A DNA stretch of 64,000 nucleotides, taken from positions 292,168 through 356,167 of the forward strand of contig CBDBZY010000003.1 of NCBI GenBank assembly GCA_965213685.1, in the 5' to 3' direction. Shown here piece after piece: positions 679-55,740 of this stretch (within the stretch, counting starts at the first letter, position 1; every line of letters begins with the position of its first letter). The notes below the pieces were generated by a model, which was given only the letters and a program-made list of their open reading frames with translations, had not been told where the DNA came from and made no database searches. The translations under genes and the position numbers were made by a program. The DNA is from a bacterium. Its GTDB lineage: Bacteria; UBA8248.

Positions 679-1132
679 ATGAGAATGTACGCAAGGACGC
701 CCACCCCTCACGAAAGAGCGGGCGAACGCCCAGCGCGGCTGGGTGCTGGTGGACGCCAGGGATTCAAACCCTGGGCGTCTCTCCACGCGCGTGGCGACGC
801 TGTTGCGCGGAAAAACACAAGCCGGACTGGACGCCGCACGTCGGACAACGGGGAGTACGTCGTCGTCGTCAACGCGGAGCGCGTCATACTCACGGGCCGC
901 AAATTGTCGGAAAAAAAGTATTACCGCCATTCCGGCTATCCCGGACACCTCAAGGAGGTGACGGCGGCCCGCATGCCTGGAGACGCATCCCGAGCGCGTG
1001 ATACAACATGCCGTGCGGGGCATGCTGCCCAAAAGCAAGCTGGGGCGCTCCCTGCTGCGAAAACTGAAGGTATATGCGGGCGAGAATCATCCGCATCAGG
1101 CGCAAACCCCCGAAGCGATTCGGCTCGACTGA
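679..1132 (+). CDS. rplM: 50S ribosomal protein L13 (apparent frameshifts, probably sequencing errors)
   Basis: [64 protein letters not shown] motifs across frames; upstream of rpsI. Confidence 0.93.
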
Positions 1133-1701: not shown

Positions 1702-2746
1702 ATGCCGAGAATCGCCGTGGTGGGCGCCACCGGATATACGGGATTCGAGCTGTTGCGGCTTCTCGGTTCGCACGGCGGGGTGGACGTCACGGCCCTGACG
1801 TCCGAGACCTACGCCGGCAAGAGGGTGGAGCAGGTGTTTCCCGCCCTCGCCTCCGTGACGGACGGCACGCTCGAGAGGTTCTCCCCCTGCCGTCTGCGAG
1901 GGGGGCGGACCTCGTGTTCTGCTGCCTGCCCCACCGGGTGGCGATGAACACCGTGCCCGCGCTGCTGGAGGCCCGGGCACCGGGTGGTGGATTTCTCCGC
2001 CGATTATCGCCTGCGGGATGTCGGTGCGTATGAAGCCTGGTACAAGACGCAACACGCCTCGCCCGGAGCGGATTCCGGACGCCGTCTACGGGATGCCCGA
2101 GCTCTATCGCGGGAGGATTCGGCGGGCGCGCCTCGTCGCCAACCCCGGGTGCTATCCCACGGGGGCGATTCTGGCGCTCGTCCCGCTTTTGCGGGCGGGA
2201 CTCATCCGGCGGGAAACCATCATCGTGGACGCGAAGTCGGGCGTTTCGGGGGGCGGGGAGAAAGGCGGACCTCGCCCTGCAGTTCAGCGAGGTGAACGAG
2301 GGTTTCAAGGCCTATGGCGTGGGGAATCACCGCCACACGCCGGAGATCGAGCAGGGAGCTGTCCGCCGCGGTCGGGGAGGACGTGCGCGTTTCGTTCACG
2401 CCCCACCTCGCGCCCATGACCCGGGGCATTCTCTCGACCATCTACGCCGGGAGCGAGGGGGCCGCCGGCGCCCATGCCGCCTGGGCGGTGCTGCGGGACG
2501 CCTACGCGGATGAGCCGTTCATTCGCCTGATGCCGGGCGGCGCGCTCCCCAACGTGACGCAGGTGGCCGGCTCGAACTATCTGGACATCGGCCTGGTGCA
2601 TGACGAGCGCACGGCGCGCTTCGTCATTGTGGCGGCGATAGACAATCTGGTAAAAGGCGCATCAGGGGCTGCGGTGCAGAACATGAACCTGATGCTGGGG
2701 CTTCCCGAGGACGCAGGGGGCTCCTTCACCCGGGTTTTGGATGTGA
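1702..2746 (+). CDS. argC: N-acetyl-gamma-glutamyl-phosphate reductase (apparent frameshifts)
   Basis: [58 protein letters not shown] motifs across frames. Confidence 0.93.
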
Positions 2747-3962
2747 GCGGGCAGGAATGCATCACGACGACGGGCGGCGGCATTTGCGCGGCGAGAGGCG
2801 TGCGCGCAGCCGCACTGGCGGCGGGCATCAAGGCGTCGGGCAAGCCGGATATGGTGCTGCTCGCCTTTGACCCCCCGGCCGCCGCCGCCGGCGTCTATAC
2901 CCGGAACAAGGTGTGCGCCGCTCCGGTCGCCCTGTGCAGGGAGCGCATCGGAAGGGCGCCCCTGCGCGCGTTTCTCGTCAACAGCGGCAACGCGAACGCC
3001 TGCACGGGCCGGCAGGGCTATGCGGACGCCCGTGGGCCTGTGCGGAGCGGTGGCGGACGCGCTGGACTGCCCGGAGGAGCAGGTCGCCATGTCCTCGACG
3101 GGGATCATCGGCGCTCCGCTCCCGGTGGGACGCCATGGAGGCGCGGATTGCGGGTCTGGTTTCCGGCCTCTCCGCCGGGGGCGGCCGCGAGGCGGCGGTG
3201 GGCATCATGACGACGGACACGCGCCCCAAGGAGTGCGCCGTTCGGGTGAGCGATCCCGCCGGGGGCGTACGCCATAGGCGGCATCGCCAAGGGCGCCGGC
3301 ATGATCGCCCCCGACATGGCGGACCATGCTCGCCTACGTCGCCACCGACGCGGCCGTTCCGCAGGCCAGCCTGCAGGCCGCCCTGCGCGCCGTCGTGCGC
3401 AAGACGTTCAACTGCGTGACGATTGATGGCGACACCTCGACGAACGACACGGTGATTCTGGCCGCGACGGGCGCCTCCGGCGTGGCGCTCGCCTCGGCGG
3501 AGTCCCTCGAGCGGTTCGAGGCCGGTCTCTACAGGCTGTGTCGGGAGCTTGCCCTGGCCATCGTCCGCGACGGCGAGGGGGGTGAACAAGGTGGTGGAGG
3601 TGAAAATCACGGGCGCCGCCAGCGAGGAGCAGGCGCGCCTGGCCGCGCGGTCGGTCTCCCAGAGCCTGCTGGTGAAAACGGCGATTCACGGCGAGATGCC
3701 CAACTGGGGGCGGATGTTCGCGGCGGCGGGCTACAGCGGCGCGGACGTGGCGCCCGAAAACATGTCGCTGCGGATAGAGGACGTGCAGGTGATGCGCGGC
3801 GGCGCGCCCGTCCCTGGCTGGGCAGACGCGCTGGCCCCGGTGCTCAAGCGGCCCGAATACGGCCTCGCGCTGTGCCTGGGGGTCGGGGAGGCGGAGGCCG
3901 TTTTCTGGACGACGGACCTGAGCGCCGAATACGTTCGCTTCAACGCGGACTACAAGACCTGA
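2743..3962 (+). CDS. argJ: Bifunctional glutamate N-acetyltransferase/ornithine acetyltransferase (apparent frameshifts)
   Basis: VNSGNANACTG, GIMTTDT, AKGAGMIAPDMA, DGDTSTND, IVRDGEG, NWGR, TDLSAEYVRFNADY. Confidence 0.93.
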
Positions 3963-4161
3963 GGGGCGCGTTGGCCTCAGAGGTTTGAACCATCTCCGTC
4001 GTTGTGAGACATTTCATGCGCCGGACGGTGGCGGACGCCGGGGCGGCGGATCCGGCCGGCGGCTCACTCAAGCAAAATCAAATATTTGAAAATTCGGCCT
4101 CATCCGCCCGGAGGCTGGCAGGGCCCCCCTCGATGAAAGGCGGGGCAGGAGGAGCGTCCCG

Positions 4162-26890: not shown

Positions 26891-27654
26891 AGGAGCTCCA
26901 TCGCACCGGAATCCAGCCTCTGGACGGCGCCGTCGGCGGCCTGAAGCATCAGGCGGCCCGCCTCGTCAATGCCTTCGCTTCTTCCGTGCACCGTCCTGTC
27001 CGCCAGGCGGAGGGATACCCTCTGGCCCAGATGATCGCAGCGGCTGAGCCAGCGGCTGCGAATTTCCCCGAAACCGTTCGACAGGAATTCCTTGTACCAG
27101 AAGGCGACGCGCCCCAGAAGGGAGTGGAGCAGATCCTCCGGGCGGGGGACCCTCCCCCCGGAGAGCAGAACGGAGGAGGCGGCTTCGCGCAACGCGGGGG
27201 GGAAATCGCCCCTGCCCGTCGCGACGTTGATTCCCACGCCCGCGATGACGGCGGGAGGCCCATCTGGGGCGGCCGCGCATTCGCACAGGATTCCGCCGAT
27301 TTTTTTCCCCTCCACCCGCAAGTCGTTCGGCCACTTGAGACCGATGCGGCAGCCCGTCGCCTCCTGGAGCCCCTCCGCGACGGCGACGCCCATGAGGAGC
27401 GTCGTGGCGGGAAGAAGTTCGGTCCGGACGTCCGGCCGAAGCAGGGCGGAGAAATACAACCCGCCCCCCGGCGGCGAAAACCAGGCGCGGCCCCGCCTCC
27501 CCCTGCCCCTGGTTTGGGACCTCGCCCGTATGACGAGGCCCTCGGCCGCACCCTCTCGCGCTCTGGCCGCCACCAGATCGTTGGTGGAGCCGACCTCCTC
27601 GAGCGTTTCGACCCGCCAGCACAGCCCCCGCGCGCTCGGGGCGATGCGCTTCAT
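26887..27654 (-). CDS. birA: Biotin--acetyl-CoA-carboxylase ligase (no HTH)
   Basis: GSTND, QTRGRGRRGRAWFSP, LKWPND, KKIGGIL, GVGINV. Confidence 0.95.
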   Translation of the reverse strand: MKRIAPSARGLCWRVETLEEVGSTNDLVAARAREGAAEGLVIRARSQTRGRGRRGRAWFSPPGGGLYFSALLRPDVRTELLPATTLLMGVAVAEGLQEATGCRIGLKWPNDLRVEGKKIGGILCECAAAPDGPPAVIAGVGINVATGRGDFPPALREAASSVLLSGGRVPRPEDLLHSLLGRVAFWYKEFLSNGFGEIRSRWLSRCDHLGQRVSLRLADRTVHGRSEGIDEAGRLMLQAADGAVQRLDSGAMELL

Positions 27655-30276
27655 CTAGTTCTGGAGCTCCAGTATGCGGGCGGTGCTCTCGCGAAGTTTC
27701 TCCACCCGCTCGCGGGTTTCGCGCAAGCGGGTTCTGTCCTTCTCCACGATGGCGGCCGGTGCGCGTTCGATGAAGGAGGCGTTTGCGAGCTTCTTCTCCA
27801 GGCCGGATATGGCGTCGCTCGCGTCCGAGATTTGCTTGTGGAGGCGTTTCAACTCCTCCGCGACGTCGATGAGGCCGCCGATGGGGACGAACACCTGGAG
27901 GCCGCCGGAGACGGCGACAGCCGACGCCCTGGGCCGCTCCACATCGGGGCCGACGCTCCAGTCGGGCGCGATCCGCGCCAGCCTCCGTATCCATTCGGAT
28001 TCGCGGATGATGAGGTTCTCCTCGTCGGAGTTGCCGACGTGAACGTGCGCTTCCACCTCTTGCCCCGGGGAGATGCGCAACTCTCCCCGAAGGTTTCGGA
28101 TGCTGCTGATCATGTCCATCAGCCCGCCGAACTCCTCTTCCGCTTCCGGGTCGTCCCAGTCGTCCCGCGGTTTCGGCCATTCGGCCACCACGATGCTCTC
28201 GCCCGCGCGATTCGGGAGTTTTTGCCAGATTTCCTCGGTGATGAAGGGGATGATCGGGTGCAGGAGGCGAAGCGTGCGCTCCAGTACCTCGGCGAGCACC
28301 GCGCGGCTGGCGTCGGCGCCCTCCTCCGAGGCGAGGGACGGCTTGATCACCTCCAGGTACCAGTCGCACAGCTCATGCCAGGTGAACTGATACAGGGCGA
28401 GGGCTGCGTCGTTGAAGCGGTATTCCCCGAGGGCTTTCGTCACCTGGCGCGTCAGGCCGTTGAGTCGGCTCAACATCCATCTGTCCCCGAGAGACAGCGC
28501 CTCTCGCTCCGGGACGGGGGGAACCGAATCTCCCAGGTGCATCAGGGTGAAGCGGGCCGCGTTCCAGATTTTGTTGCAGAAGTTCCGGTACCCGGCGATG
28601 CGCTCCGTGGACATGCGGATGTCGCGTCCCTGGGCGGCCATGGCGGCGAGCGTGAACCGGAGCGAATCGGCGCCGAACTCCTCGATGATTTCCAGCGGGT
28701 CGATGATGTTTCCCCGCGTTTTGCTCATCTTCTGCCCGTGCTCATCCCGCACGAGGGCGTGGATGTAGACGTCGCGGAACGGAACGTCGTCCATGAACTT
28801 GAGGCCCGCCATGATCATCCGCGCCACCCAGAAGAAGATGATGTCGAACCCGGTGACGAGGACGGAGGTGGGGTAGAAGTATTTCAGGTCCGGGTTGGCG
28901 TCCGGCCACCCGAACGTCGAGAAGGGCCACAGAGCGGAGCTGAACCAGGTGTCGAGCACGTCGGTTTCGCGGCGGAGGTTCGGGTCGTCGGGGTCCTCGC
29001 GCGAGACGATGACCTCTCCGGTATCATCGTCATACCAGGCGGGTATCTGGTGGCCCCACCAAATCTGGCGGCTGATGCACCAGTCGCGAATGTTGCGCAT
29101 CCACTCAAAATAGGTGGATTCCCATTGCGCGGGGATGATTTTGATTCGCCCGTCCTCCACGGCGCGAATCGATTCCTCCGCCAGCGGTTTCGCGCGCACG
29201 AACCATTGCTTCGACATGTACGGCTCCACCACGGTGCCGCAGCGATAGCATCCGCCGACGGCGTGGCGGTGGGCCTCCACCCCCCGCGTCAGCCCCCGCT
29301 CCTCCATGTCGGCGAGGATGCGCCCGCGCGCCTCGAACCTGTCCAGCCCTGCGTAAGGCCCCCCGTTTTCGTTGATTTTCGCGTCCGGGGCGAGGATGTT
29401 GATCCGGGGGAGATCGTTTCGCAGCCCCGCCTCGAAATCGTTCGGATCGTGTGCCGGCGTGACCTTCACCGCCCCGGAGCCGAACGCGGCGTCCACGAAA
29501 GAATCCGCGATGATCGGGATTTTCCTGTCCAGAAGCGGCAGGCGCAGGTGTTTGCCCACCATGCCCTTGTATCTCTCATCCTCGGGGTGAACCGCCACGG
29601 CGGTGTCGCCCAGCATGGTTTCGGGGCGGGTCGTCGCGATGGTGACGCCCTCTCCGCCATCCCAGAGCGGATAGTGGAATCTCCAGAGGTGGCCGTCCTG
29701 CTCCTCGTGTTCGACCTCCAGGTCGGAGACGGCCGTCCCGCACCTCGGGCACCAGTTCACCAGATAGTTGTCGCGGTAAACCAGCCCCTCCTCATACAGC
29801 CGCACGAAGGCCTCGCGCACGGCGCGGGACAATCCCTCGTCCATGGTGAACCGCTCGCGCTCCCAGTCGCACGAGGCGCCCAGGCGGTGGAGCTGGCGAA
29901 TGATGGTGCCGCCGCTCTCGGCCTTCCACTTCCAGACGCGCTCGACGAATTTCTCGCGCCCCAGCGCCTCCCGGGAGAGGTTCTCCCCGGCGAGCTGTCG
30001 CTCCACCACGTTCTGGGTAGCGATGCCCGCATGGTCGGTGCCCGGCATCCAGCAGACGCGCGATCCGCTCATCCGCTTCCAGCGGGCGAGGATGTCCTGC
30101 AGGGTGTTGTTCAGGGCGTGTCCCATGTGAAGGGAGCCCGTCACGTTGGGCGGCGGGATGACGATGGCGTACGGCGCGTGACGCGCACTCGGCGCGCCCT
30201 GAAAATATCCGCGCTTCAGCCATTCCGCATACCAGCGGTCCTCAGCCCCTTTCGGGTCGTAGCGGGGTTCCAGCAA
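27655..30276 (-). CDS. valS: Valine--tRNA ligase
   Basis: PPPNVTGSLHMGH, DWCISRQIWWGH, DVLDTWFSS, KMSK, C-terminal coiled-coil arm. Confidence 0.99.
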   Translation of the reverse strand: MLEPRYDPKGAEDRWYAEWLKRGYFQGAPSARHAPYAIVIPPPNVTGSLHMGHALNNTLQDILARWKRMSGSRVCWMPGTDHAGIATQNVVERQLAGENLSREALGREKFVERVWKWKAESGGTIIRQLHRLGASCDWERERFTMDEGLSRAVREAFVRLYEEGLVYRDNYLVNWCPRCGTAVSDLEVEHEEQDGHLWRFHYPLWDGGEGVTIATTRPETMLGDTAVAVHPEDERYKGMVGKHLRLPLLDRKIPIIADSFVDAAFGSGAVKVTPAHDPNDFEAGLRNDLPRINILAPDAKINENGGPYAGLDRFEARGRILADMEERGLTRGVEAHRHAVGGCYRCGTVVEPYMSKQWFVRAKPLAEESIRAVEDGRIKIIPAQWESTYFEWMRNIRDWCISRQIWWGHQIPAWYDDDTGEVIVSREDPDDPNLRRETDVLDTWFSSALWPFSTFGWPDANPDLKYFYPTSVLVTGFDIIFFWVARMIMAGLKFMDDVPFRDVYIHALVRDEHGQKMSKTRGNIIDPLEIIEEFGADSLRFTLAAMAAQGRDIRMSTERIAGYRNFCNKIWNAARFTLMHLGDSVPPVPEREALSLGDRWMLSRLNGLTRQVTKALGEYRFNDAALALYQFTWHELCDWYLEVIKPSLASEEGADASRAVLAEVLERTLRLLHPIIPFITEEIWQKLPNRAGESIVVAEWPKPRDDWDDPEAEEEFGGLMDMISSIRNLRGELRISPGQEVEAHVHVGNSDEENLIIRESEWIRRLARIAPDWSVGPDVERPRASAVAVSGGLQVFVPIGGLIDVAEELKRLHKQISDASDAISGLEKKLANASFIERAPAAIVEKDRTRLRETRERVEKLRESTARILELQN

Positions 30277-30282
30277 GGGTTT

Positions 30283-31683
30283 TTATTCTCCGCGTTTGAT
30301 CTTTTCGATTTCCCGAAGAACGATTTGCTCTACTATGTGGGGAAGCTTGTCCGCCACGACGCTTTCAATGTGGCGCAACAATGTGGGGACAATCCGCATC
30401 GCGGCCTCTTCCAGAGATTTCTGGATGATGGGGTCGATCCGCTCGCCATCCAGCCCGGGCGCGACGCCGGGGGAGGGAAGGGGCGCCTCCTCCGCATCGC
30501 CTGTGACGGAAGCGCCTTCCGGCGGGCTGGCCGCCTCCCCCGCTTCTGCGGGCGGATTTTCGGCATCTGCGGGAGGATGGGCGGATTCCGCAGGCGTCTC
30601 CGGGGGGGCTTCTGGAGGGAGGGGCGTCTCCTCCGCATCGCCCGCGACGGACGCGCCTTCTGGCGGGCTGGCCGCTTCCCCCACTTCTGCGGGCGGATTT
30701 TCGGCATCTGCGGGAGGATGGGCGGCTTCCGCAGGCGTCTCCGGGGTGTCTTCTGGAGGGAGTGGCGGCGTCTCCCCCGCATCGCCCGCGACGGAAGCGC
30801 CTTCTGGCGGGCTGGCGGCCGCCTCCCCCGCTTCTGCGGGCGGATTTTCGGCATCTGCGGGAGGATGGGCGGATTCCGCAGGCGTCTCCGGGGGGGCTTC
30901 CGGAGGGAGGGGCGCCTCCTCCGCATCGCCCGCGACGGACGCGCCCTGTGGCGGGCCGGCCGCCTCCTCCGCTTCTGCGGGCAGGTTTTCGGCATCTGCG
31001 GGAGAGAGGGCGGCTTCCGCAGGCGTCTCCGGGGGGTCTTCTGGAGGGAGGGGCGTCTCCTCCGCATCGCCTGTGACGGAAGCGCCTTCCGGCGGGCTGG
31101 CCGCCTCCTCCGCTTCTGCGGGCGGATTTTCGGCATCTGCGGGAGTGTGGGCGGCTTCCGCAGGCGTCTCGGGGGGGGCTTCTGGCGGGAGGATCGCCTC
31201 CTCCGCATCGCCCGCGACGAACGCGCCCTCTGGCGGGCTGGCCGCCTCCCCCGAGGATTCTTCTTCGGGGGGTCGTTCCGGAGAATCCGCGTCCGCCCGC
31301 TCTGCCGGGGCCGACGCCAGGGCGAAGGCGCGCTCTATTTTCTCCGTGAATACATGGGGCTTGAACGGTTTCTCGATGATGTCGGCGGCGTCCACTTCGC
31401 GTATTTCCGCCTCGCTGACGCTTGTGCGCGTGCTCGTCAGGACGATGAGGGGCACGTCGGAGAGTTCGGCGTTCCGGCGCAGGCTCCGGCAGAAGGCCAT
31501 GCCGTCGGAATTCTCCATGTCCAGGCTGGCCACGACGACGGTCGGCGGCCGGTTCTCCGCGATCTCGATGGCGTCCTCGGCCTTGTCCGCCAGATGGAGG
31601 TCCACGTTCTTGTCGCGAAAGGCTAGTTCCGCCACGCGCTGAACCAGCAGGCTTTCGTCCAGCAGGAGCAGGTTGGTCGGCAT
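30283..31683 (-). CDS. RomR-like protein: atypical receiver domain, acidic Pro-rich repeats and a PopZ/RomR-C-like helical tail
   Basis: MPTNLLLLDES...KPF receiver with S at the phospho-Asp position (VVVASLDM); C-terminal KLPHIVEQIVLREIEKIKRGE; directly upstream of valS. Confidence 0.72.
   Translation of the reverse strand: MPTNLLLLDESLLVQRVAELAFRDKNVDLHLADKAEDAIEIAENRPPTVVVASLDMENSDGMAFCRSLRRNAELSDVPLIVLTSTRTSVSEAEIREVDAADIIEKPFKPHVFTEKIERAFALASAPAERADADSPERPPEEESSGEAASPPEGAFVAGDAEEAILPPEAPPETPAEAAHTPADAENPPAEAEEAASPPEGASVTGDAEETPLPPEDPPETPAEAALSPADAENLPAEAEEAAGPPQGASVAGDAEEAPLPPEAPPETPAESAHPPADAENPPAEAGEAAASPPEGASVAGDAGETPPLPPEDTPETPAEAAHPPADAENPPAEVGEAASPPEGASVAGDAEETPLPPEAPPETPAESAHPPADAENPPAEAGEAASPPEGASVTGDAEEAPLPSPGVAPGLDGERIDPIIQKSLEEAAMRIVPTLLRHIESVVADKLPHIVEQIVLREIEKIKRGE
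30470..31250 (-). repeat. Coding tandem repeat, ~141 bp (47-48 aa), about 5.4 copies
   Basis: Unit SPPEGASVAGDAEE.PLPPEAPPETPAE.AHPPADAENPPAEA.EAA recurs with few substitutions. Confidence 0.95.
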
Positions 31684-38631: not shown

Positions 38632-41600
38632 CTAGCGGGCCGCCCCCACGGCTTCGCTCGGGGAGAAGCCATCCCGTTCTTGCGGAGCAAGTTTTTGGAG
38701 AAGTATGACGATTCTTCGGTTCTTGGCGCGCTCCTCCTCGGTGTCGTTGCTGGCCGCGGGCCGATGGAACGAGTGGGCGGCGGCGGACAGGCGCCGGGGA
38801 GATATGTTTCTGGATTCCAGGAATTTGACGACGGCGAGGGCGCGCGCGGATGAAAGCTCCCAATTCGTGGGATAGCGGCTGAGGAGATTGCCTCGAATCG
38901 GTTTGTTGTCCGTATGTCCTTCTATCCGGATCTCCTTGTCTGTTTGCGTCTGGAGAAATTCCGCGATCCTCGCAAGCGTCTCGATGCCTTTGGGCCGGAT
39001 ATCCGCGCTTCCAGAGTCAAACAAAAGACTGCTCACGATGCTCACCCGGAGCCGGTCCTCGGTCTGCTGCAAGGTGACGAGTTGTTTCTTGAGTTGCGTG
39101 TTCACCGCCTCCATGTCTTCTTCTAGCCGCCTCGCCCGCTCCGCTTCCTGACGCGCCTTTTTCTCCAGAATTTTGGAGCGCGCAATCGCGAGTGCCTGCT
39201 TTTTGATCGCTTCCGCCAGATTGGAGCTCGTCTGATGCAGCTTGGTCTTCATGAAGTCGGCCACGGAGGTCTTCTCTGCGAGGAGCTTACCCATCTCCTC
39301 CACCTGTCCCTGGAGAAGCGCCTGGGCTTTTTTGAGCTGCGCGACCTGCTCGTCCCGTTCGCTGGCGAGTTGAAGGTTGCGGGCGTTTGATTTTTCCAGT
39401 CCCTCGCGCGTCGTGCGCTCTGCAGCGAGCACCTCCCGGCTTTGCTCGAGGGATTGGGCGATTTTCTCGCTTGTGGCCTTTTCGCGCTCGATGTGGAGGT
39501 TCTTCTCAGCGAGAGCCTTGTCCATCTCCTCCACCTGCCCCTGGAGGAGCGCCTGTGATTTTTCCAGTCCTTCGCGCGTCGTGCGCTCTGCAGCGAGCGC
39601 CGCCCTGCTTTGCTCGAGGGATTGTGCGATTTTCTCGCTTGTGGCTTTTTCGCGTTCGATGTGGAGGTTTTTCTCGGCGAGAGCCTTGTCCATCTCCTCC
39701 ACCTGTCCCTGGAGGAGCGCCTGTGATTTTTCCAGCCCTTCGCGGGTCATGCGCTCTGCAGCGAGCGCCGCCCGGCTTTGCTCGAGAGATTGGGCGATTT
39801 TCAGGCTGGTGGCCTTTTCGCGCTCGATGTGAAGGTTCTTCTCGGCGAGCGCCTTGCCCATCTCCTCCACCTGTCCCTGGAGGAGTGTCTGTGATTTTTC
39901 CAGCCCTTCGCGGGTCATGCGCTCCGTTGCGAGCGCCGCCCTGCTTTGCTCGAGGGATTGGGCGATTTTCAGGTTTGTGGCCTTTTCCCGTTCGATGTGG
40001 AGGTTCTTCTCGGCGAGCGCCTTGTCCATCTCCTCCACCTGCCCCTGGAGGAGTGCCTGCGCGGTTTTGAGGCGTGTGACCTGCTCGTCCCTCTCGCTGG
40101 CGAGTTTCAGGTTGCGGGCGTTTGATTTTTCGAGTCCCTCGCGGGTCATGCGCTCTGCAGCGAGCGCCGCCCGGCTTTGCTCGAGAGATTGGGCGATTTT
40201 CAGGCTGGTGGCCTTTTCGCGTTCGATGTGCAGGTTTTTCTCGGCGAGAGCCTTGTCCATCTCCTCCACCTGCCCCTGGAGAAGCGCCTGTGATTTTTCG
40301 AGTCCCTCGCGGGTCATGCGCTCTGCAGCGAGCGCCGCCCGGCTTTGCTCGAGGGATTGGGCGATTTTCAGGCTGGTGGCCTTTTCGCGCTCGATGTGGA
40401 GGTTTTTCTCGGCGAGGGCCTTGTCCATCTCCTCCACCTGTCCCTGGAGGAGCGCCTGTGATTTTTCCAGCCCCTCGCGGGTCATGCGCTCTGCAGCGAG
40501 CGCCGCCCGGCTTTGCTTGAGGGATTGTGCGATTTTCAGGCTTGTGGCCTTTTCCCGTTCGATGTGGAGGTTTTTCTCGGCGAGGGCCTTGTCCATCTCC
40601 TCCACCTGTCCCTGGAGGAGCGCCTGTGATTTTTCCAGCCCCTCGCGGGTCATGCGCTCTGCAGCGAGCGCCTCCCGGCTTTGCTCGAGGGATTGGGCGA
40701 TTTTCAGGCTGGTGGCCTTTTCGCGCTCGATGTGGAGGTTTTTCTCGGCGAGAGCCTTGTCCATCTCCTGCACCTGCCCCCGGAGGAGCGCCTGTGATTT
40801 TTCCAGCCCCTCGCGGGTCATGCGCTCTGCAGCGAGCGCCTCCCGGCTTTGCTCGAGGGATTGGGCGATTTTCAGGCTGGTGGCCTTTTCGCGCTCGATG
40901 TGGAGGTTTTTCTCGGCGAGAGCCTTGTCCATCTCCTGCACCTGCCCCCGGAGAAGCGCCTGGGCTTTTTTGAGGCGCGCGACCTGCTCGTCCCGTTCGC
41001 TGGCGAGTTGAAGGTTGCGGGCGTTTGATTTTTCCAGCCCTTCGCGGGTCATGCGCTCCGCTGCGAGCGCCGCCCGGCTTTGCTTGAGGGATTGGGCGAT
41101 TTTCAGGCTGGTGGCTTTTTCGCGTTCGATGTGGAGGTTTTTCTCGGCGAGAGCCTTGCCCATCTCTTCCACCTGCCCCTGGAGAAGCGCCTGTGATTTT
41201 TCGAGTCCTTCGCGCGTGATGCGCTCCGCTGCGAGCGCCGCCCGGCTTTGCTCGAGGGATTGGGCGATTTTCAGGCTGGTGGCTTTTTCGCGCTCGATGT
41301 GAAGGTTCTTCTCGGCGAGAGCCTTCCCCATCTCCTCTACCTGCCCCTGGAGGAGCGCCTGTGATTTTTCCAGCCCTTCGCGCGTGATGCGCTCCGCTGC
41401 GAGCGCCTCCCGGCTTTGCTGGAGGGATTGGGCGATTTTCAGGTTTGTGGCCTTTTCCCGTTCGATGTGGAGGTTTTTCTCGGCGAGAGCCTTGCCCATC
41501 TCCTCCACCTGTCCCTGGAGGAGCGTCTGCGCGGTTTTGAGGCGCGCGACCTGCTCGTCCCGCTCGCTGGCGATTTTCAGGCTGGTGGCCTTTTCGCGTT

Positions 41601-43299
41601 CGATGTGGAGGTTTTTCTCGGCGAGAGCCTTGCCCATCTCCTCCACCTGTCCTTGGAGGAGCGCCTGTGCGGTTTTGAGGCGCGCGACCTGCTCGTCCCT
41701 CTCGCTGGCGAGTTGCAGGTTGCGGGCGTTTGATTTTTCCAGCCCTTCGCGCGTGATGCGCTCCGCTGCGAGCGCCTCCCGGCTTTGCTGGAGGGATTGG
41801 GCGATTTTCAGGTTTGTGGCCTTTTCCCGTTCGATGTGCAGGTTCTTCTCGGCGAGAGCCTTGTCCATCTCCTCCACCTGCCCCTGGAGGAGCGCCTGTG
41901 ATTTTTCGAGCCCCTCGCGGGTCATGCGCTCTGCAGCGAGCGCCGCCCGGCTTTGCTCGAGAGATTGGGCGATTTTCAGGCTGGTGGCTTTTTCGCGTTC
42001 GATGTGGAGGTTTTTCTCGGCGAGGGTCTTCCCCATCTCCTCAATCTGCCCCTGGAGGAGCGCCTGCGCTTTTTTGAGGCGTGTGACCTGCTCGTCCCTC
42101 TCGCTGGCGAGTTTCAGGTTGCGGTCGTTTGATTTTTCGAGTCCCTCGCGGGTCATGCGCTCTGCAGCGAGCGCCTTGTCCATCTCCTCCACCTGCCCCT
42201 GGAGAAGCGCCTGTGATTTTTCCAGTCCCTCGCGGGTCATGCGCTCCGCTGCGAGCGCCTCCCGGCTTTGCTCGAGGGATTGTGCGATTTTCAGGCTAGT
42301 GGCCTTTTCGCGCTCGATGTGCAGGTTTTTCTCGGCGAGAGCCTTGCCCATCTCCTCCACCTGCCCCTGGAGAAGCGCCTGTGCGGTTTTGAGGTGCGCG
42401 ACCTGCTCGTCCCTCTCGCTGGCGATTTTTAGGCTAGTGGCTTTTTCGCGTTCGATGTGGAGGTTTTTCTCGGCGAGAGCCTTTCCCATCTCCTCCACCT
42501 GTCCCTGGAGGAGTGCCTGTGATTTTTCCAGTCCCTCGCGGGTCATGCGCTCTGCAGCGAGCGCCGCCCGGCTTTGCTCGAGAGATTGTGCGATTTTCAG
42601 GCTGGTGGCCTTTTCGCGTTCGATGTGCAGGTTTTTCTCAGCGAGGGTCTTGCCCATCTCCTCCACCTGCCCCTGGAGGAGCGCCTGCGCTTTTTTGAGC
42701 TGCGCGACCTGCTCGTCCCGCTCGCTGGAGATTTTCTCGCTAGTGGCCTTTTCGCGTTCGATGTGAAGGTTCTTCTCTGCGAGCGCCTTGTCCATCTCCT
42801 CCACCTGCCCCTGGAGAAGCGCCTGCGCGGTTTTGAGGCGCGCGACCTGCTCGTCCCTCTCGCTGGCGATTTTCAGGCTGGTGGCCTTTTCGCGCTCGAT
42901 GTGCAGGTTTTTCTCGGCAAGAGCCTTTCCCATCTCCTCCACCTGTCCCTGGAGAAGCGCCTGTGCGGTTTTGAGGCGCGCGACCTGCTCATCTCTCTCG
43001 CTGGCGAGTTGGAGGTTGCGGGCGTTTGATTTTTCCAGCCCCTCGCGCGTCATGCGCTCCGCTGCGCGCAGGGAGCGCGCGCGGGTTTCCGCCTGTTCGA
43101 GTCGGGAGCGCAACTCCCTCGCCCGCCCCTCCAGGGTTTCGGCGCGGCGGGAGACCTCCCGCAGCCTGATGGAGTGCGCCGCGAGCTCGACCTCTCGTTT
43201 TTCCAGTGAACTCTTTGCCACGTGGGATTGCTGGGCGAGGTATCCCGTTCCGCCGAGAAGCGCAGCGATAATCGCCCCTATAGAGATGCGAACGCCCAA
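38632..43299 (-). CDS. Giant membrane-anchored coiled-coil protein with C-terminal OmpA/MotB peptidoglycan-binding domain (1555 aa)
   Basis: N-terminal hydrophobic helix; ~1270 aa repeats; C-terminal LLFDSGSA..IRIEGHTDN..NWELSSARA..NDTEEERAKNRR. Confidence 0.9.
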   Translation of the reverse strand: MGVRISIGAIIAALLGGTGYLAQQSHVAKSSLEKREVELAAHSIRLREVSRRAETLEGRARELRSRLEQAETRARSLRAAERMTREGLEKSNARNLQLASERDEQVARLKTAQALLQGQVEEMGKALAEKNLHIEREKATSLKIASERDEQVARLKTAQALLQGQVEEMDKALAEKNLHIEREKATSEKISSERDEQVAQLKKAQALLQGQVEEMGKTLAEKNLHIEREKATSLKIAQSLEQSRAALAAERMTREGLEKSQALLQGQVEEMGKALAEKNLHIEREKATSLKIASERDEQVAHLKTAQALLQGQVEEMGKALAEKNLHIEREKATSLKIAQSLEQSREALAAERMTREGLEKSQALLQGQVEEMDKALAAERMTREGLEKSNDRNLKLASERDEQVTRLKKAQALLQGQIEEMGKTLAEKNLHIEREKATSLKIAQSLEQSRAALAAERMTREGLEKSQALLQGQVEEMDKALAEKNLHIEREKATNLKIAQSLQQSREALAAERITREGLEKSNARNLQLASERDEQVARLKTAQALLQGQVEEMGKALAEKNLHIEREKATSLKIASERDEQVARLKTAQTLLQGQVEEMGKALAEKNLHIEREKATNLKIAQSLQQSREALAAERITREGLEKSQALLQGQVEEMGKALAEKNLHIEREKATSLKIAQSLEQSRAALAAERITREGLEKSQALLQGQVEEMGKALAEKNLHIEREKATSLKIAQSLKQSRAALAAERMTREGLEKSNARNLQLASERDEQVARLKKAQALLRGQVQEMDKALAEKNLHIEREKATSLKIAQSLEQSREALAAERMTREGLEKSQALLRGQVQEMDKALAEKNLHIEREKATSLKIAQSLEQSREALAAERMTREGLEKSQALLQGQVEEMDKALAEKNLHIEREKATSLKIAQSLKQSRAALAAERMTREGLEKSQALLQGQVEEMDKALAEKNLHIEREKATSLKIAQSLEQSRAALAAERMTREGLEKSQALLQGQVEEMDKALAEKNLHIEREKATSLKIAQSLEQSRAALAAERMTREGLEKSNARNLKLASERDEQVTRLKTAQALLQGQVEEMDKALAEKNLHIEREKATNLKIAQSLEQSRAALATERMTREGLEKSQTLLQGQVEEMGKALAEKNLHIEREKATSLKIAQSLEQSRAALAAERMTREGLEKSQALLQGQVEEMDKALAEKNLHIEREKATSEKIAQSLEQSRAALAAERTTREGLEKSQALLQGQVEEMDKALAEKNLHIEREKATSEKIAQSLEQSREVLAAERTTREGLEKSNARNLQLASERDEQVAQLKKAQALLQGQVEEMGKLLAEKTSVADFMKTKLHQTSSNLAEAIKKQALAIARSKILEKKARQEAERARRLEEDMEAVNTQLKKQLVTLQQTEDRLRVSIVSSLLFDSGSADIRPKGIETLARIAEFLQTQTDKEIRIEGHTDNKPIRGNLLSRYPTNWELSSARALAVVKFLESRNISPRRLSAAAHSFHRPAASNDTEEERAKNRRIVILLQKLAPQERDGFSPSEAVGAAR
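39270..43065 (-). repeat. Modular coding tandem repeat (168-, 138- and 231-bp units)
   Basis: 20 full copies of QALLQGQVEEM.KALAEKNLHIEREKATSLKIA interleaved with three other modules; 168-bp spacing seen at 40441/40609. Confidence 0.95.
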
Positions 43300-43466
43300 G
43301 ACTATTCCCCTGTCAGAGCGTTTTCACGTGTTTTGTCAGTCATGGCAGGATGATAGTCCCCATTTTCGGGAAAACGGAACCGGGGCGCCGCCGCCGCGTC
43401 GCGGCGATGGCGCAACCGGGTCCGCATCCGCAACCCTCTGGCCGTTTTTCCTGGGGGGAGTGTCGC

Positions 43467-44177
43467 TCAATCGCGCGAGGCTCCCAGCAGCTGGGTCAGG
43501 TAAATGAACATCATGATGAAGTCGAGGTAGAGCTCCAGTGCCGCCATGATGGAGGCGCGCCTGCCCGTTTCGTTGTCCGTGTCCTGGGTGTATGCGTATT
43601 CCTTCATCTTCTGGGTGTCATAGGCCGTCAGACCCGCGAAGATGAGAACGCCCAGAACGCTGATGGCGAAATGAACGGCGGAGCTGGCTGCGAAAATGTT
43701 GACGATGCTGGCGAGTATGATGCCGATGAGGCCCACCATGCAGAAATTGCCCACCCCGGAGAGGTCCTTCTTCGTGGCGAAAGCAAAGAGCGTCAATCCG
43801 CCAAACGCGCCGCCGGTCACGAAAAACGCCTGGGCGACGGACGTGAGCGTATAGCGGAGGAGGAGGGTCGAGACGGTGACCCCCAGCGTGGCGCTGTAGA
43901 GCACGAACAGGATGGCGCCCGCCTGCCAGCCCTGGCTGCGCATGACGGGCCGGATGGAGAACACCAGCGCGAGCTGCACGCCGATGACCAGAAATACCGA
44001 AATGGAGCTTCCAAAGATGAATGAAATGGCGGCAGGACTGGACGCGACGTAGAACGCGCTGAGGCCCGTGACGAAGAGCCCGAGCGTCATCCATCCGTAG
44101 ACGCGCTGCATGAATGCGGCGGCGTCTTGTGCGATGACACGTTGTCCGGTCGAGCGAGTGAAATCTTGAGAGCGCAT
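43467..44177 (-). CDS. Bax inhibitor-1/YccA family membrane protein
   Basis: FMQRVYGWM, TKKDLS, GLTAYDTQKMK, ALELYLDF. Confidence 0.93.
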   Translation of the reverse strand: MRSQDFTRSTGQRVIAQDAAAFMQRVYGWMTLGLFVTGLSAFYVASSPAAISFIFGSSISVFLVIGVQLALVFSIRPVMRSQGWQAGAILFVLYSATLGVTVSTLLLRYTLTSVAQAFFVTGGAFGGLTLFAFATKKDLSGVGNFCMVGLIGIILASIVNIFAASSAVHFAISVLGVLIFAGLTAYDTQKMKEYAYTQDTDNETGRRASIMAALELYLDFIMMFIYLTQLLGASRD

Positions 44178-44414
44178 TTCGGAGTTCCTCCCACGGAATC
44201 TGAGCATTTCGCCTCACCGCCGCGCGCACGAGGCGACGAGGGGCATCCACAAAAAAGTCTCCCGCTTGATACCCCGCCTGCACGGGAATATCAACAGCGC
44301 ATCGACATTATATCCATCTGGCGGATATTTTCCTACCCTCTGCGAGCCCGGTTCTCCTGACGCTCTCCGGGATGTTCGCGGGAGACGATGGCCATATCCC
44401 CGGGGGGTTGCGTG

Positions 44415-44442
44415 TTGACATGATGGTAAGGCTCCATATAAT
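44415..44442 (+). promoter_or_regulatory. Sigma70 promoter of the MarR-LLM unit
   Basis: TTGACA-N16-TATAAT, both boxes consensus. Confidence 0.7.
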
Positions 44443-44475
44443 TAGGCCGCCATAACACCATGCCGGAGAGCTATC

Positions 44476-45075
44476 GTGTTCTACATGAAAGAGCTGCCCA
44501 GCGAAGAGGATTTTCGCCCCCTCGTGCCGGAGTATTCCTCCCTGGACACCGCCTCCGTCATTCTTTTTTATCTTTTCCTGCAGGTCGGCAGCGATACGCT
44601 CACCGCCTTTGAAACGTATCTGGCCGATCATGGCGTGTCGCAGGGCAGGTTTATCGTTCTCCTGTTGTTGCTGCGCTCGCAGGCCCGGAACAATGGCTCG
44701 GGCCTCAGCCCGTCGGAGCTGGCGCGGCAGGCGGGCGTGACGCGCGCGACGATGACGGGGCTGCTCGACGGCCTCCAGCGCGACGGCCTCATCGGACGCC
44801 TGCGCCACCCTGCCGACAGAAGAAGGGTCGTCGTGCGCCTGACGTCGAAGGGGGAGGAGACCCTCCACTCCATTTTCCCCGACTATTACGCGCGCATCTC
44901 GGAGTTGATGAACGATCTGGAGGACGAGGAGAAGGAGAAGTTCTCCATACTGCTCCGGAAGGTGAAAAGTAAGATGTCTTCGCTGAAACAGGCGTCGGGC
45001 CACGATGCGGGAGGAGGCGACATATCCTGCCCGGACACGCCCGAAAGGCCAATACCCGTTGCGGAAGGAGAATGA
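44476..45075 (+). CDS. MarR-family transcriptional regulator
   Basis: GVSQGRF.VL, SPSELA...GVTRATMTGLLDGL.RDGLI.R..HP.DRR...VRLT.KG. Confidence 0.93.
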   Translation: MFYMKELPSEEDFRPLVPEYSSLDTASVILFYLFLQVGSDTLTAFETYLADHGVSQGRFIVLLLLLRSQARNNGSGLSPSELARQAGVTRATMTGLLDGLQRDGLIGRLRHPADRRRVVVRLTSKGEETLHSIFPDYYARISELMNDLEDEEKEKFSILLRKVKSKMSSLKQASGHDAGGGDISCPDTPERPIPVAEGE

Positions 45076-45079
45076 GACG

Positions 45080-46328
45080 ATGGCGAAACCCAAGGTGATC
45101 ATTCCAGCTCTACCCCATGTTGCCGACGGATAGCCGGGAGGAGCGCGAGCGCAGGAGGCCCCTGGCCAGGGGACAGGGATTTATATCATCACGTCCTCCA
45201 CGAATGGCTCGACATCGTGAAAGCGGCGGATGAGATGGGCGTATGGGGCATCAGCACGATTTGAGCACCATCTGCATTCGGAGGGGTATGAGGTGGGGCC
45301 CAACCCGGGGGTTGCTGAACGCATGGTGGGCCGCCCAAATCAAAAACGCGCGGGTGGGTGCCCTGGGGTACGTGATGGCGACGCAGGACCCCGTCCGCGT
45401 GGCCGAGGAGACGGCCATACTCGACCACATCACCAAGGGCAGGTTCTTCTGCGGCGTGGCGCGGGGCTATCAGTCCAGGTGGGCGAATGTCCTGGGCCAG
45501 TTCAGCGACACCCGCGCCACCGTTTCCTCGGACTTAGGGGGCAGCGATGACGTAAAGAATCGGGACATCTTCGAGGAGCGCGTCGAGATGCTCCTCAAGT
45601 TCTGGCAGGAAGATTCCGTGGAGGTGAAAGGGGATTATTACGAGGTTCCCTACCCGTATGCGGCGGGCATCGACTATCCGGCCTGGAAGAGCGCCCGGGA
45701 TGCGGGCGCCATCGGCGAGATCGGCGATGACAATCGGGTGCGGAGGGTGAGCGTCGTGCCCAAGCCCTACCAGGCGCCGTATCCGCCCATGTTCCAGGCC
45801 GTGAGCGCGAGCCCGGATTCCATCAAATTCGCGGCGCGGCACGGATTCCGGCCCGTATATTTCACCAAACTGGAAAAGATGGAGGAATTCTCCCATCTCT
45901 ACGTGGAGGAGGCGGCCAGGGCGGGCCACAATTTTGCGCACGGGGAGCGGCAGTGCGTCTGCCGGTGGATTCACGTCTCGGATTCCGCGGAGGAGTACGA
46001 CGAGAAGCTGCGAAGATATGACCAGGACATTTACCAGAATTTCTACGTCCCCTTCTTTCCCCAGTTTCCGGATGACACCGAGAGCATCGACTGGATAGCC
46101 AACATCAAGGAGAGCGGAATCTTCCTCGGGGGCACGGTGGACACGCTCAAGCGGGAATGGGAGGAGACGTACGAGAAGGTGCCCTCCGAGTTCATCACCC
46201 TGATCTGGCACTACGCGCAATGCCCCAAGGAGGAGGTCATCTACGAGCTGGAGACGTTCATGACGAAGGTGTGGCCCGACCTGGAATGCCCGGTGTCGAA
46301 CGGTGTCACCGTCGGCGGGGTGGCTTGA
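45080..46328 (+). CDS. LLM-class flavin-dependent oxidoreductase (5' part with several apparent indels)
   Basis: KAADEMG, EHHLHSEG, DPVRVAEETAILDHITKGRF..GVARGYQ.RW, VVPKPYQ.P.PP; indels clustered at ~45100-45310. Confidence 0.88.
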
Positions 46329-52711: not shown

Positions 52712-52836
52712 GAAACACTCCCGGAAACGCTCCCGGAGGAGGGCGCGCCGGCTGTTGCTGCGGCGTCCGGGAAGCCGGGCGGAAACAGGAGATGCGAGAT
52801 TTTGATGCGCATATTTTGCTATGAGGAGAAACGTTC

Positions 52837-54759
<1,923 letters not shown>

Positions 54760-54783
54760 GCGGTTCGCCTGGATGAGGATGGC

Positions 54784-55740
54784 ATGCCCAAGCGTGATTA
54801 CTATGATGTCCTGGGAATTGACCGGAGCGCTTCCGACGCCGAATTGAAGCGCGCCTTCAAGAAGCTGGCGCGGAGATATCACCCCGACGTCAACCCGGGG
54901 GACAAGAAGGCGGAGGAGCGCTTCAAGGAGATCAGCGAGGCATACGCCGTCCTATCGGACGCGGACAAGCGCAAGCAATACGACGCCATGGGACACGCCG
55001 CCTTCGGCGGCGGGAGTCCCTGGGGGGAGGGCGGCGCCCCGCCGAGCATGGAGGATATTCTGCGCGAGTTTGGCCTGGGCGATATTCTGGGAGGGATGTT
55101 CGGCGGAGGCCGCGCAGACCCCAGGCGCGGGGGGTTCCGGACGCAGCCTCCGCCCCCCCAGCGGGGCCAGGACGTGAACTACTCGATGGAGATTGGCTTT
55201 GACGACGCTCTCAAGGGGCTCCACACCACCATCACCGTGCCGAAGACCACCTCCCGGGACGGCAGGATGCAGCGCGGCACCGAACGCATCCAGGTGCGGA
55301 TACCGCCCGGCGTCTCGAACGGCTCCCGCGTCCGCCTCGCGGGCAAGGGGGAGTCCTCCCTGAACGGCGGGGGGAGTGGAGACCTTTTCATCGTCACCAA
55401 GGTGCGGGAGCACCCCTTCTTCGAGCGGAAGGGGGACAACTTGTATCTCGAGCTTCCCGTCAGCCTCGGCGAGGCGCTGCTGGGCGCCCGCGTGGAGATC
55501 AACACGTTCGAGGGGGCGACCAAGATGACGATTCCCCCCTCCACCCAGAATGGCCAGGTTTTCCGGCTTTCGGGGAAGGGCGCCCCGAGGCTGAAGGGGG
55601 GCGGCAAGGGCGATTTGTACGTCACCGTCCGCGTGCTGCTGCCGGAGGGCGTGGATGAGGAGAGCAAGGAGATGATCCGCGAGTTCGAGCGGCGCAACCC
55701 GACGTCGCCGCGGGCGAAGATGACGGGCGTGAGCCTGTAG
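54784..55740 (+). CDS. DnaJ-class co-chaperone without zinc finger (CbpA-like)
   Basis: J domain with HPD, G-rich linker, C-terminal domains, no CxxCxGxG repeats. Confidence 0.9.

Follow-up and report, generated by a model that had tools for sequence, protein, structure and literature searches.

Contig CBDBZY010000003.1 of a bacterial genome (NCBI GenBank assembly GCA_965213685.1; GTDB lineage Bacteria; UBA8248) carries a gene for a 1555-residue envelope protein within a stretch of 64,000 nucleotides (nt) that was analysed as a whole and is called the window here (positions 292,168 to 356,167 of the forward strand). In this protein, hereafter the rod protein, a very long heptad-periodic rod separates an N-terminal hydrophobic segment from a C-terminal OmpA-like domain. 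A preliminary description made from the sequence alone had reported an open reading frame (ORF) with these three parts. The frame itself, Pfam matching and the periodicity of the sequence confirm that observation, and the gene is real. Judged by its sequence relatives, it is a hyper-expanded member of a family of short (~330-480 amino acids, aa) stand-alone proteins, each with a coil and an OmpA-like domain, that occurs throughout the phylum. The explanation we consider best, and to which we give slightly more belief than doubt, is a membrane-to-wall tether whose homo-oligomeric coiled-coil stalk lies along the wall or is slack in this organism. The gene and the parts of its product, in the order of the protein chain, are as follows.

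38632..43299, minus strand: whole gene, 1555 codons and a stop, with a TTG start
43234..43287, minus strand: N-terminal hydrophobic segment, residues 5-22 (I5-A22), a signal anchor or signal peptide
42979..43221, minus strand: non-repeated N-terminal helical segment, residues 27-107, with a steady heptad register over most of its length
39334..42978, minus strand: repeat array, residues 108-1322, with 20 diverged copies (46, 56 or 77 aa) and one truncated copy
39025..39333, minus strand: conserved helical neck, residues 1323-1425, with 81% mean column identity in the alignment
38716..39024, minus strand: OmpA-like (MotB-type) domain, residues 1426-1528, Pfam PF00691
38635..38715, minus strand: C-terminal tail, residues 1529-1555, exceeding that of the orthologues by about 9 residues

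The heptad-periodic part of the rod comprises ~1,335 residues and is free of proline. Pro, Cys and Trp are all absent from residues 27-1400, in agreement with the ~1400 helix-favouring, proline-less residues of the preliminary description, and the amino acids E, A, L, K, Q and R make up 68% of the whole protein. Residues of the LIVMF set recur with a single dominant peak at 3.5 residues (power 5.44, versus a maximum of 1.52 in 1000 shuffles); in the best register they fill 60% of a positions and 49% of d positions, with 3-21% at the other five. Such periodicity, a/d enrichment and lack of helix breakers are those of a canonical heptad coiled coil, and the coiled-coil nature proposed earlier is thereby borne out at the level of sequence. 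The repeat units take three forms: 46 aa, 56 aa, equal to 8 heptads, and 77 aa, equal to 11, the 56-aa form lacking a piece of 21 aa. In the DNA, Tandem Repeats Finder detects repeats that have periods of 138, 168 and 306 nt and 84-96% matches. Between about residues 570 and 1393 the heptad register holds constant but for short local blips. Each 46-aa unit moves the register by one stutter.

A coiled coil rises ~0.15 nm per residue, so 1335-1400 helical residues would form a rod of about 200 nm if straight. Structure prediction gives this rod modest support. In a monomer model of residues 831-1107 (277 aa), the repeat piece is one unbroken helix from 2 to 276 and not a compact bundle, with a mean pLDDT of 81.3 and a pTM of 0.29; a low pTM is expected for a rod, and the folding method tends to favour long helices in such sequences. 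An AlphaFold2 single-sequence model of residues 1-1200 was unusable (pLDDT 51, pTM 0.26) and showed identical repeats as helix in one place and coil in another. A complex prediction with two copies of the last 400 aa, run without controls, gave no answer (score 0.02) and counts neither way on oligomerisation.

The C-terminal domain is assigned to the OmpA-like family by a match to PF00691 that covers the profile fully (positions 1-98) at E 2.9e-20 and 72.9 bits, against a gathering cut-off of 27.2. Its closest solved relatives are MotB (6ysf, E 1.3e-27; 6ysl), an 'OmpA family protein' (8ucs), MotS, TssL1 and PomB. The motifs EGHTDN, SNWELS.ARA and NRR are held in common with MotB 6ysf and are invariant in 13-14 orthologues; D1464, N1479-S1483, R1486 and N1527-R1529, which align to these motifs, are invariant in 13 sequences. 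Among the curated NCBIfam models the best is MotD, at 117 bits versus a cut-off of 283, beside MotB (103.7 versus 301) and the PRK09039-type models (86.6 versus 305 and 71.7 versus 388); TssL-long also matches, far under its cut-off. The rod protein, by these scores, belongs to no curated equivalog, and the matches to the MotD and MotB models below cut-off extend over the neck. The motif TD...N..LS..RA...NRR of the rod protein presumably supplies the peptidoglycan-contacting Asp and Arg, and the domain would bind peptidoglycan non-covalently.

At the other end of the protein, 17 of the first 25 positions are invariant in 13 sequences whose rods are only ~40% identical, a degree of conservation that appears to exceed the need of a mere export signal. 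Because of this invariance, and because the glycines and alanine of the hydrophobic segment form a small-xxx-small face (G8/A12/G16), the segment is most likely kept in the inner membrane as an uncleaved signal anchor.

The family to which the rod protein is assigned was delimited by several searches. Searched with its last 256 residues, the proteins of 855-2722 aa gave 14 matches at E<=1.6e-83 (59-65% identity, 856-1339 aa), one of which is named 'OmpA family protein [Nitrospinota bacterium]'. Orthologues longer than 2722 aa, or fused, were sought and none was found, the single hit being an unrelated multidomain protein. Full-length orthologues with open frames of 331-998 aa are present in 21 of the 22 other genomes of the genus, the exception being a genome of 79% completeness. 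Other genera of the family have clear relatives of 373-482 aa, and the C-terminal profile finds a match in 50 of the 51 genomes examined in the phylum. When 1.84 billion representatives were searched with a profile, 891 proteins matched at E<=1e-30. Among the best 150 of these most have 200-480 aa, and four exceed 1000 aa; the latter contain proline and are not coiled coils, and one has seven OmpA domains (14 of the 150 were inspected).

Within the genus, the length of the rod is labile, as the preliminary description had anticipated in calling it tunable by repeat number. In 28 orthologues, between 150 and 1335 aa separate the N-terminal motif from the neck. The comparison among orthologues, which the same description had proposed as a check, gives total lengths of 331 to 1555 aa within the genus. 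Most of this change seems to have occurred in whole heptads, because rod length is congruent to 1 modulo 7 in 16 of the 28 orthologues and the differences are mostly multiples of 7. A maximum-likelihood tree was built from five flanking proteins, concatenated, with all 17 rows retained. In it the window groups (support 95/94) with species that have 358-, 331- and 429-aa forms, which means that its nearest relatives carry the shortest forms, 331-429 aa. The 77-aa unit of the window can be aligned (43% over 65 residues) with the one unit present in the 358-aa form, and a 409-aa sister protein has two 46-aa-type units. On the tree and these alignments, the 1,555-aa form is a lineage-specific amplification of one ancestral unit, at least four-fold. 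In the other clade sister species differ from one another (674 versus 856 aa; 699 versus 926 aa), and the expansions there are independent, with different repeat sequences. In the 358-aa orthologue (L011:8001-9074) most of the rod is replaced by a proline-rich linker, with 6 Pro between anchor and neck; the stalk can therefore be a flexible linker, not a coiled coil, in some species.

Genome size was considered as a correlate of rod length and rejected. Across 22 genomes the two are correlated with a phylogenetically confounded rho of 0.65, the largest genome of the genus having the longest rod and the four smallest the shortest; among 17 genomes of 3.3-4.6 Mb the value is 0.26, which is not significant, and the relation is confounded with clade. 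The genome of the window itself measures 7.97 Mb (71 contigs, 94% complete, 3.7% contamination), versus 2.9-4.6 Mb in the 22 other species of the genus. Either its size has truly doubled or it includes contigs that do not belong to it.

As a tether, the rod protein would be exported by its N-terminal hydrophobic segment, which would stay in the inner membrane as a signal anchor, and its OmpA-like domain would grip the sacculus without a covalent bond. Chains would pair or triple in parallel, giving a coiled-coil stalk that links inner membrane and sacculus. In short ancestral forms, a stalk of ~20-35 nm would bridge membrane and wall directly. In the lineage of the window, unequal recombination would have amplified one unit of ~46-77 aa to 20 copies, and the ~200-nm stalk would run along the wall or membrane, or serve as a slack long-range tether, because a stalk of ~200 nm cannot stand across the periplasm.

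Several points weigh against this proposal. The core of the coiled coil is imperfect, with residues other than LIVMF at 40% of a and 51% of d positions and charged residues at 37% of d positions. The hydrophobic segment is 18 residues long, includes four glycines, and is also compatible with a cleavable signal peptide (h-region I5-L15, then G-T-G before Y20). The in-plane arrangement is derived purely from geometry. Searches of the literature, supplements being outside their scope, found no studied protein of this layout; in the parts consulted, PMC13442872 and PMC2875224 concern other OmpA-like proteins, and PMC10839748 does not mention the rod protein. The length of the array depends on one assembly: the k-mer contigs of four Logan runs, all of one study and possibly the source data of the assembly, stop at 39315/39319 and resume at 42961, none spans the array, and inside it there are only contig pieces of 70-120 nt. 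Runs X1-X3 contain only small shares, so no habitat is deduced from them. Elsewhere in the window, rplM/rpsI and argC/argJ (598-2033 and 2314-3988) look broken.

The signal peptide leads to the best-surviving alternative. If the segment is cleaved there is no membrane anchor, and the rod protein would then be a soluble periplasmic fibril, exported by Sec, fixed to the wall only at its C-terminus and otherwise a free, highly charged coiled-coil fibre of a brush or matrix. Residues 1-22 do have an n-h-c layout with an 11-residue h-region and small residues at -3 and -1 before Y20. The mean Kyte-Doolittle value exceeds 1.6 in a single 19-residue window, which starts at residue 1, and two distant giant proteins with coil and OmpA domain (P0016 and P0017) begin with signal-peptide-like N-termini. 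However, it would be unusual for a signal peptide and the residues next to it to stay near-invariant (17 of 25) while the rod diverges, and the G8/A12/G16 spacing resembles a helix-packing motif. We regard the fibril as unlikely.

Less probable still is a stronger form of the tether proposal, in which the long forms would be in-plane periplasmic cables of two or three strands that run from inner membrane to sacculus and have a length tuned by repeat number to cell dimensions, an idea drawn from the confounded relation of rod length to genome size. If true, ~200-nm cables would limit the retreat of the membrane from the wall, like the Hechtian strands of plant cells.

The interpretation offered in the preliminary description stands with respect to architecture, the absence of a stator partner and tunable length; its lateral filament may hold, as may a slack tether, and its fixed molecular ruler is not supported. 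As a ruler or spacer the rod would span an enlarged periplasm or invaginated membranes and set their distance. A precedent exists in the lengthening of Lpp (PMC5736177), and rod length alters in heptad multiples. Yet congeners with 85-95% identical flanks carry forms of 331-998 aa, sister species are unlike, and within the one genus that holds the 1555-aa form its nearest relatives are the shortest. Envelopes of near-identical organisms would have to differ 9-fold in width, and 4- to 5-fold length differences between closest relatives are hard to reconcile with a perpendicular ruler. A gap of 200 nm would also take up much of the width that small rod-shaped cells have. A fixed ruler is thus quite improbable. 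We are just as doubtful about a periskeletal shape element, whose copies would bundle into a wall-fixed periplasmic filament that biases wall growth and produces curvature or helicity. A long periplasmic coiled coil with a wall anchor would suit this role, and Vibrio CrvA is said to be a periplasmic curvature filament, but the short orthologues, with a rod of ~150 aa, would be poor filament formers.

An array over-expanded or mis-joined in assembly, with a much shorter true gene, is in our judgement very unlikely. It would agree with the lack of any contig or read that spans the array, with a contig of run X4, and with the frameshift-like breaks elsewhere in the window. The X4 contig (depth 7) leads from 41071 back to 39517, with five additional letters. 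It may reflect a longer version of the array in some of the population, or an artefact of the k-mer graph. As for the breaks, pieces of the L13 and S9 profiles match in different frames, and a TGA falls inside the L13 match (window 737-1093). ArgJ is divided over two ORFs, of which one is fused with the final part of argC, and a second fragmented L13, spread over 1.4 kb, is found on contig C16. Either assembly indels or real decay would account for them; as breaks that look like frameshifts in rplM/rpsI and argJ, they suggest that local assembly errors occur in this window. Within the rod gene, every unit is distinct: DNA differs in 20 of 20 cores and in 11 of 11 full 56-aa units (mean identity 0.90), no exact direct repeat exceeds 172 nt, and of 4569 100-mers all but 194 are unique (96%). 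Inside the array, unitigs of three runs fit with 0-2 differences, there is depth in each of the 30 bins, and the reading frame is uninterrupted across 4.67 kb. Long orthologues are also found on long contigs, namely 835-982-aa forms on single-contig chromosomes of 3.9-4.4 Mb and a 1339-aa form on a 3.88-Mb contig. Differences between copies are mostly synonymous (pS 0.26, pN 0.05). Because the copies all differ in DNA with a pN/pS of 0.20, the array appears to be real and selected, which argues for copies that diverged under selection for the protein and against a collapsed or duplicated pile of reads.

A Shine-Dalgarno-like GGGGAA, noted on inspection of the sequence, lies 5-10 nt 5' of the TTG start (43305..43310, minus strand). 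The same aligned N-terminal motif marks the start in 13 orthologues, where the codon is ATG once and TTG or GTG in the other 12. A consensus scan found no sigma-70-like promoter for the rod gene, and the four terminator-like hits are all on the strand opposite to it.

In E. coli MotB the conserved Asp of the membrane helix is D32. The rod protein has no Asp or Glu in residues 1-32, its earliest acidic residue being E33, and the orthologue N-termini inspected likewise have none, so the anchor does lack the MotB Asp, as described at the outset. The accompanying statement that no motA or flagellar gene is nearby holds as well: none of the 101 window ORFs scanned with Pfam (all of >=200 aa and selected shorter ones near the rod gene) matched a MotA or flagellar family, and the window contains housekeeping genes. 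Three MotA_ExbB genes exist in the genome, the nearest ~41 kb away outside the window and the rest on other contigs; one of them, on contig C44, is ~3.5 kb from an OmpA-family match, possibly Pal. Homologues in other genera have no MotA/ExbB-type neighbour in any of five annotated loci. A flagellar stator B subunit was therefore rejected, given the missing Asp, the missing MotA neighbour and NCBIfam scores far below cut-offs. An orphan stator-type B subunit paired with a MotA/ExbB/TolQ-type channel encoded elsewhere is highly improbable too: MotB, MotD and PomB are the best family and Protein Data Bank (PDB) matches and three MotA_ExbB genes are at hand, but no acidic residue lies in or near the hydrophobic segment, all MotB models are far under cut-off (117 versus 283 bits), no locus examined has a MotA-type neighbour, and one of the three genes is the one ~3.5 kb from the possible Pal. 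Most other genomes of the genus have a second match to the C-terminal profile, in a 299-aa open frame of which only the OmpA-like part is covered (profile ~78-227), and this is possibly a true MotB; no second match was reported in the genome of the window at E<=1e-10.

The gene neighbourhood was also rejected as a clue to function. In a scan of species representatives, 13 loci in metagenome-assembled genome (MAG) records titled Nitrospinota, Nitrospinaceae or 'bacterium' have a common gene order (ClpB, radical-SAM, cyclase, luciferase-like, MarR, Bax1-I, rod gene, M16 peptidase, RibF, OEP). Their flanking proteins are 85-95% identical to those of the window, and the rod protein is ~40% identical overall and 61-65% in the last 234 residues. 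Synteny is kept in 16 of 16 loci of the genus, and the flanking genes are shared in none of nine loci outside it, a pattern of genus-level collinearity of housekeeping genes. Upstream of the rod gene, a 264-aa ORF at 44308-45102 (minus strand; 'orf264') is Arg-rich and has no family hit; as a candidate partner it was rejected, being a shadow frame of the plus-strand MarR-family gene. That regulator (44476-45075, 199 aa) is divergent from the Bax1-I gene (43467-44207, minus strand) and 45-60% conserved in the genus. A 1546-aa ORF at 26986-31626 (plus strand) has no Pfam hit and is antisense to the genes for valyl-tRNA synthetase (27655-30276, minus strand) and a response regulator (30283-31683, minus strand). 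It was dismissed as a related giant despite its similar size, since it is a shadow frame of G+C-rich DNA. At 52819-54882 (minus strand) there is a Pfam NAD-GH match (PF10712, E 2e-167) antisense to dnaK (Hsp70/DnaK, 52837-54759, plus strand, E 8e-262), most likely an antisense-frame match.

How the outer membrane is tied to the wall, for example by Lpp, Pal and OmpA, is well studied; structural connections of the wall to the inner membrane are not. The family described here is widespread (891 representative clusters) and stands alone without a motor partner. With stalks from ~20 to ~200 nm, the genus offers a natural length series for asking whether such a protein sets, senses or tolerates envelope geometry, and the array illustrates the growth of a coiled coil, under purifying selection, by steps that preserve the heptad. 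Should the long form prove to be an ordinary tether whose expansion is simply tolerated, it would be no more than a curiosity.

Among known systems, MotB, PomB and MotS (6ysf, 6ysl, 3wpw) have a similar plan, with a single N-terminal hydrophobic helix, a periplasmic helical linker and an OmpA-like domain of the same subtype. The rod protein differs from them in that it lacks the channel Asp and a MotA partner gene, has 1,300 more residues in its linker, and scores below the equivalog cut-offs. The models of the PRK09039 type (NF006542-NF006546) align over both coil and OmpA domain, for example over 53-348 of the 350 positions of NF006543. Proteins of this type have 340-630 aa, and at 86.6 versus 305 bits the rod protein is no member by NCBI's rule; our searches found no paper that characterises the PRK09039-type protein itself. 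ESM Atlas clusters of 334-433 aa, 100% OmpA, score 0.89-0.96 to the 358-aa orthologue and come from Thermodesulfobacteriota, Aminicenantota, Spirochaetota and Nitrospirota. Giants are also seen in metagenomes: P0016 (1933 aa), P0017 (2014 aa) and P0018, P0020 and P0024 (862-1055 aa) have OmpA domains 35-39% identical to that of the rod protein and long helix-rich regions, with a strong heptad signal in P0018 and P0020. These proteins differ in their N-termini, which have a signal peptide and TPR, or a ~190-aa cytoplasmic domain before the membrane helix, and are not orthologous.

Two better-known coiled coils are more remote. Lpp, of only 58 aa, is a lipoprotein of the outer membrane that forms trimers and is covalently attached to the wall. 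It is likewise a periplasmic coiled coil attached to peptidoglycan, and its longer versions widen the E. coli periplasm (PMC5736177). Unlike Lpp, the rod protein has no lipobox or Cys (residues 1-1400), would be anchored, if at all, in the inner membrane and would bind through an OmpA-like domain, and its length is unconserved, 331-1555 aa within one genus. The M proteins of streptococci are wall-anchored coiled coils with a non-ideal core, and the number of their tandem repeats varies between strains; they are extracellular, on monoderms, LPXTG-anchored and under immune selection. The rod protein, unlike these, would be periplasmic in a diderm, as the host is taken to be because its genome has an OEP/TolC-type gene, OmpA-family matches and MotA_ExbB-family genes. 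By sequence, the layout of the rod protein matches a widespread class to which PRK09039 probably belongs, and what is new is the extreme stalk together with a documented length series within one genus.

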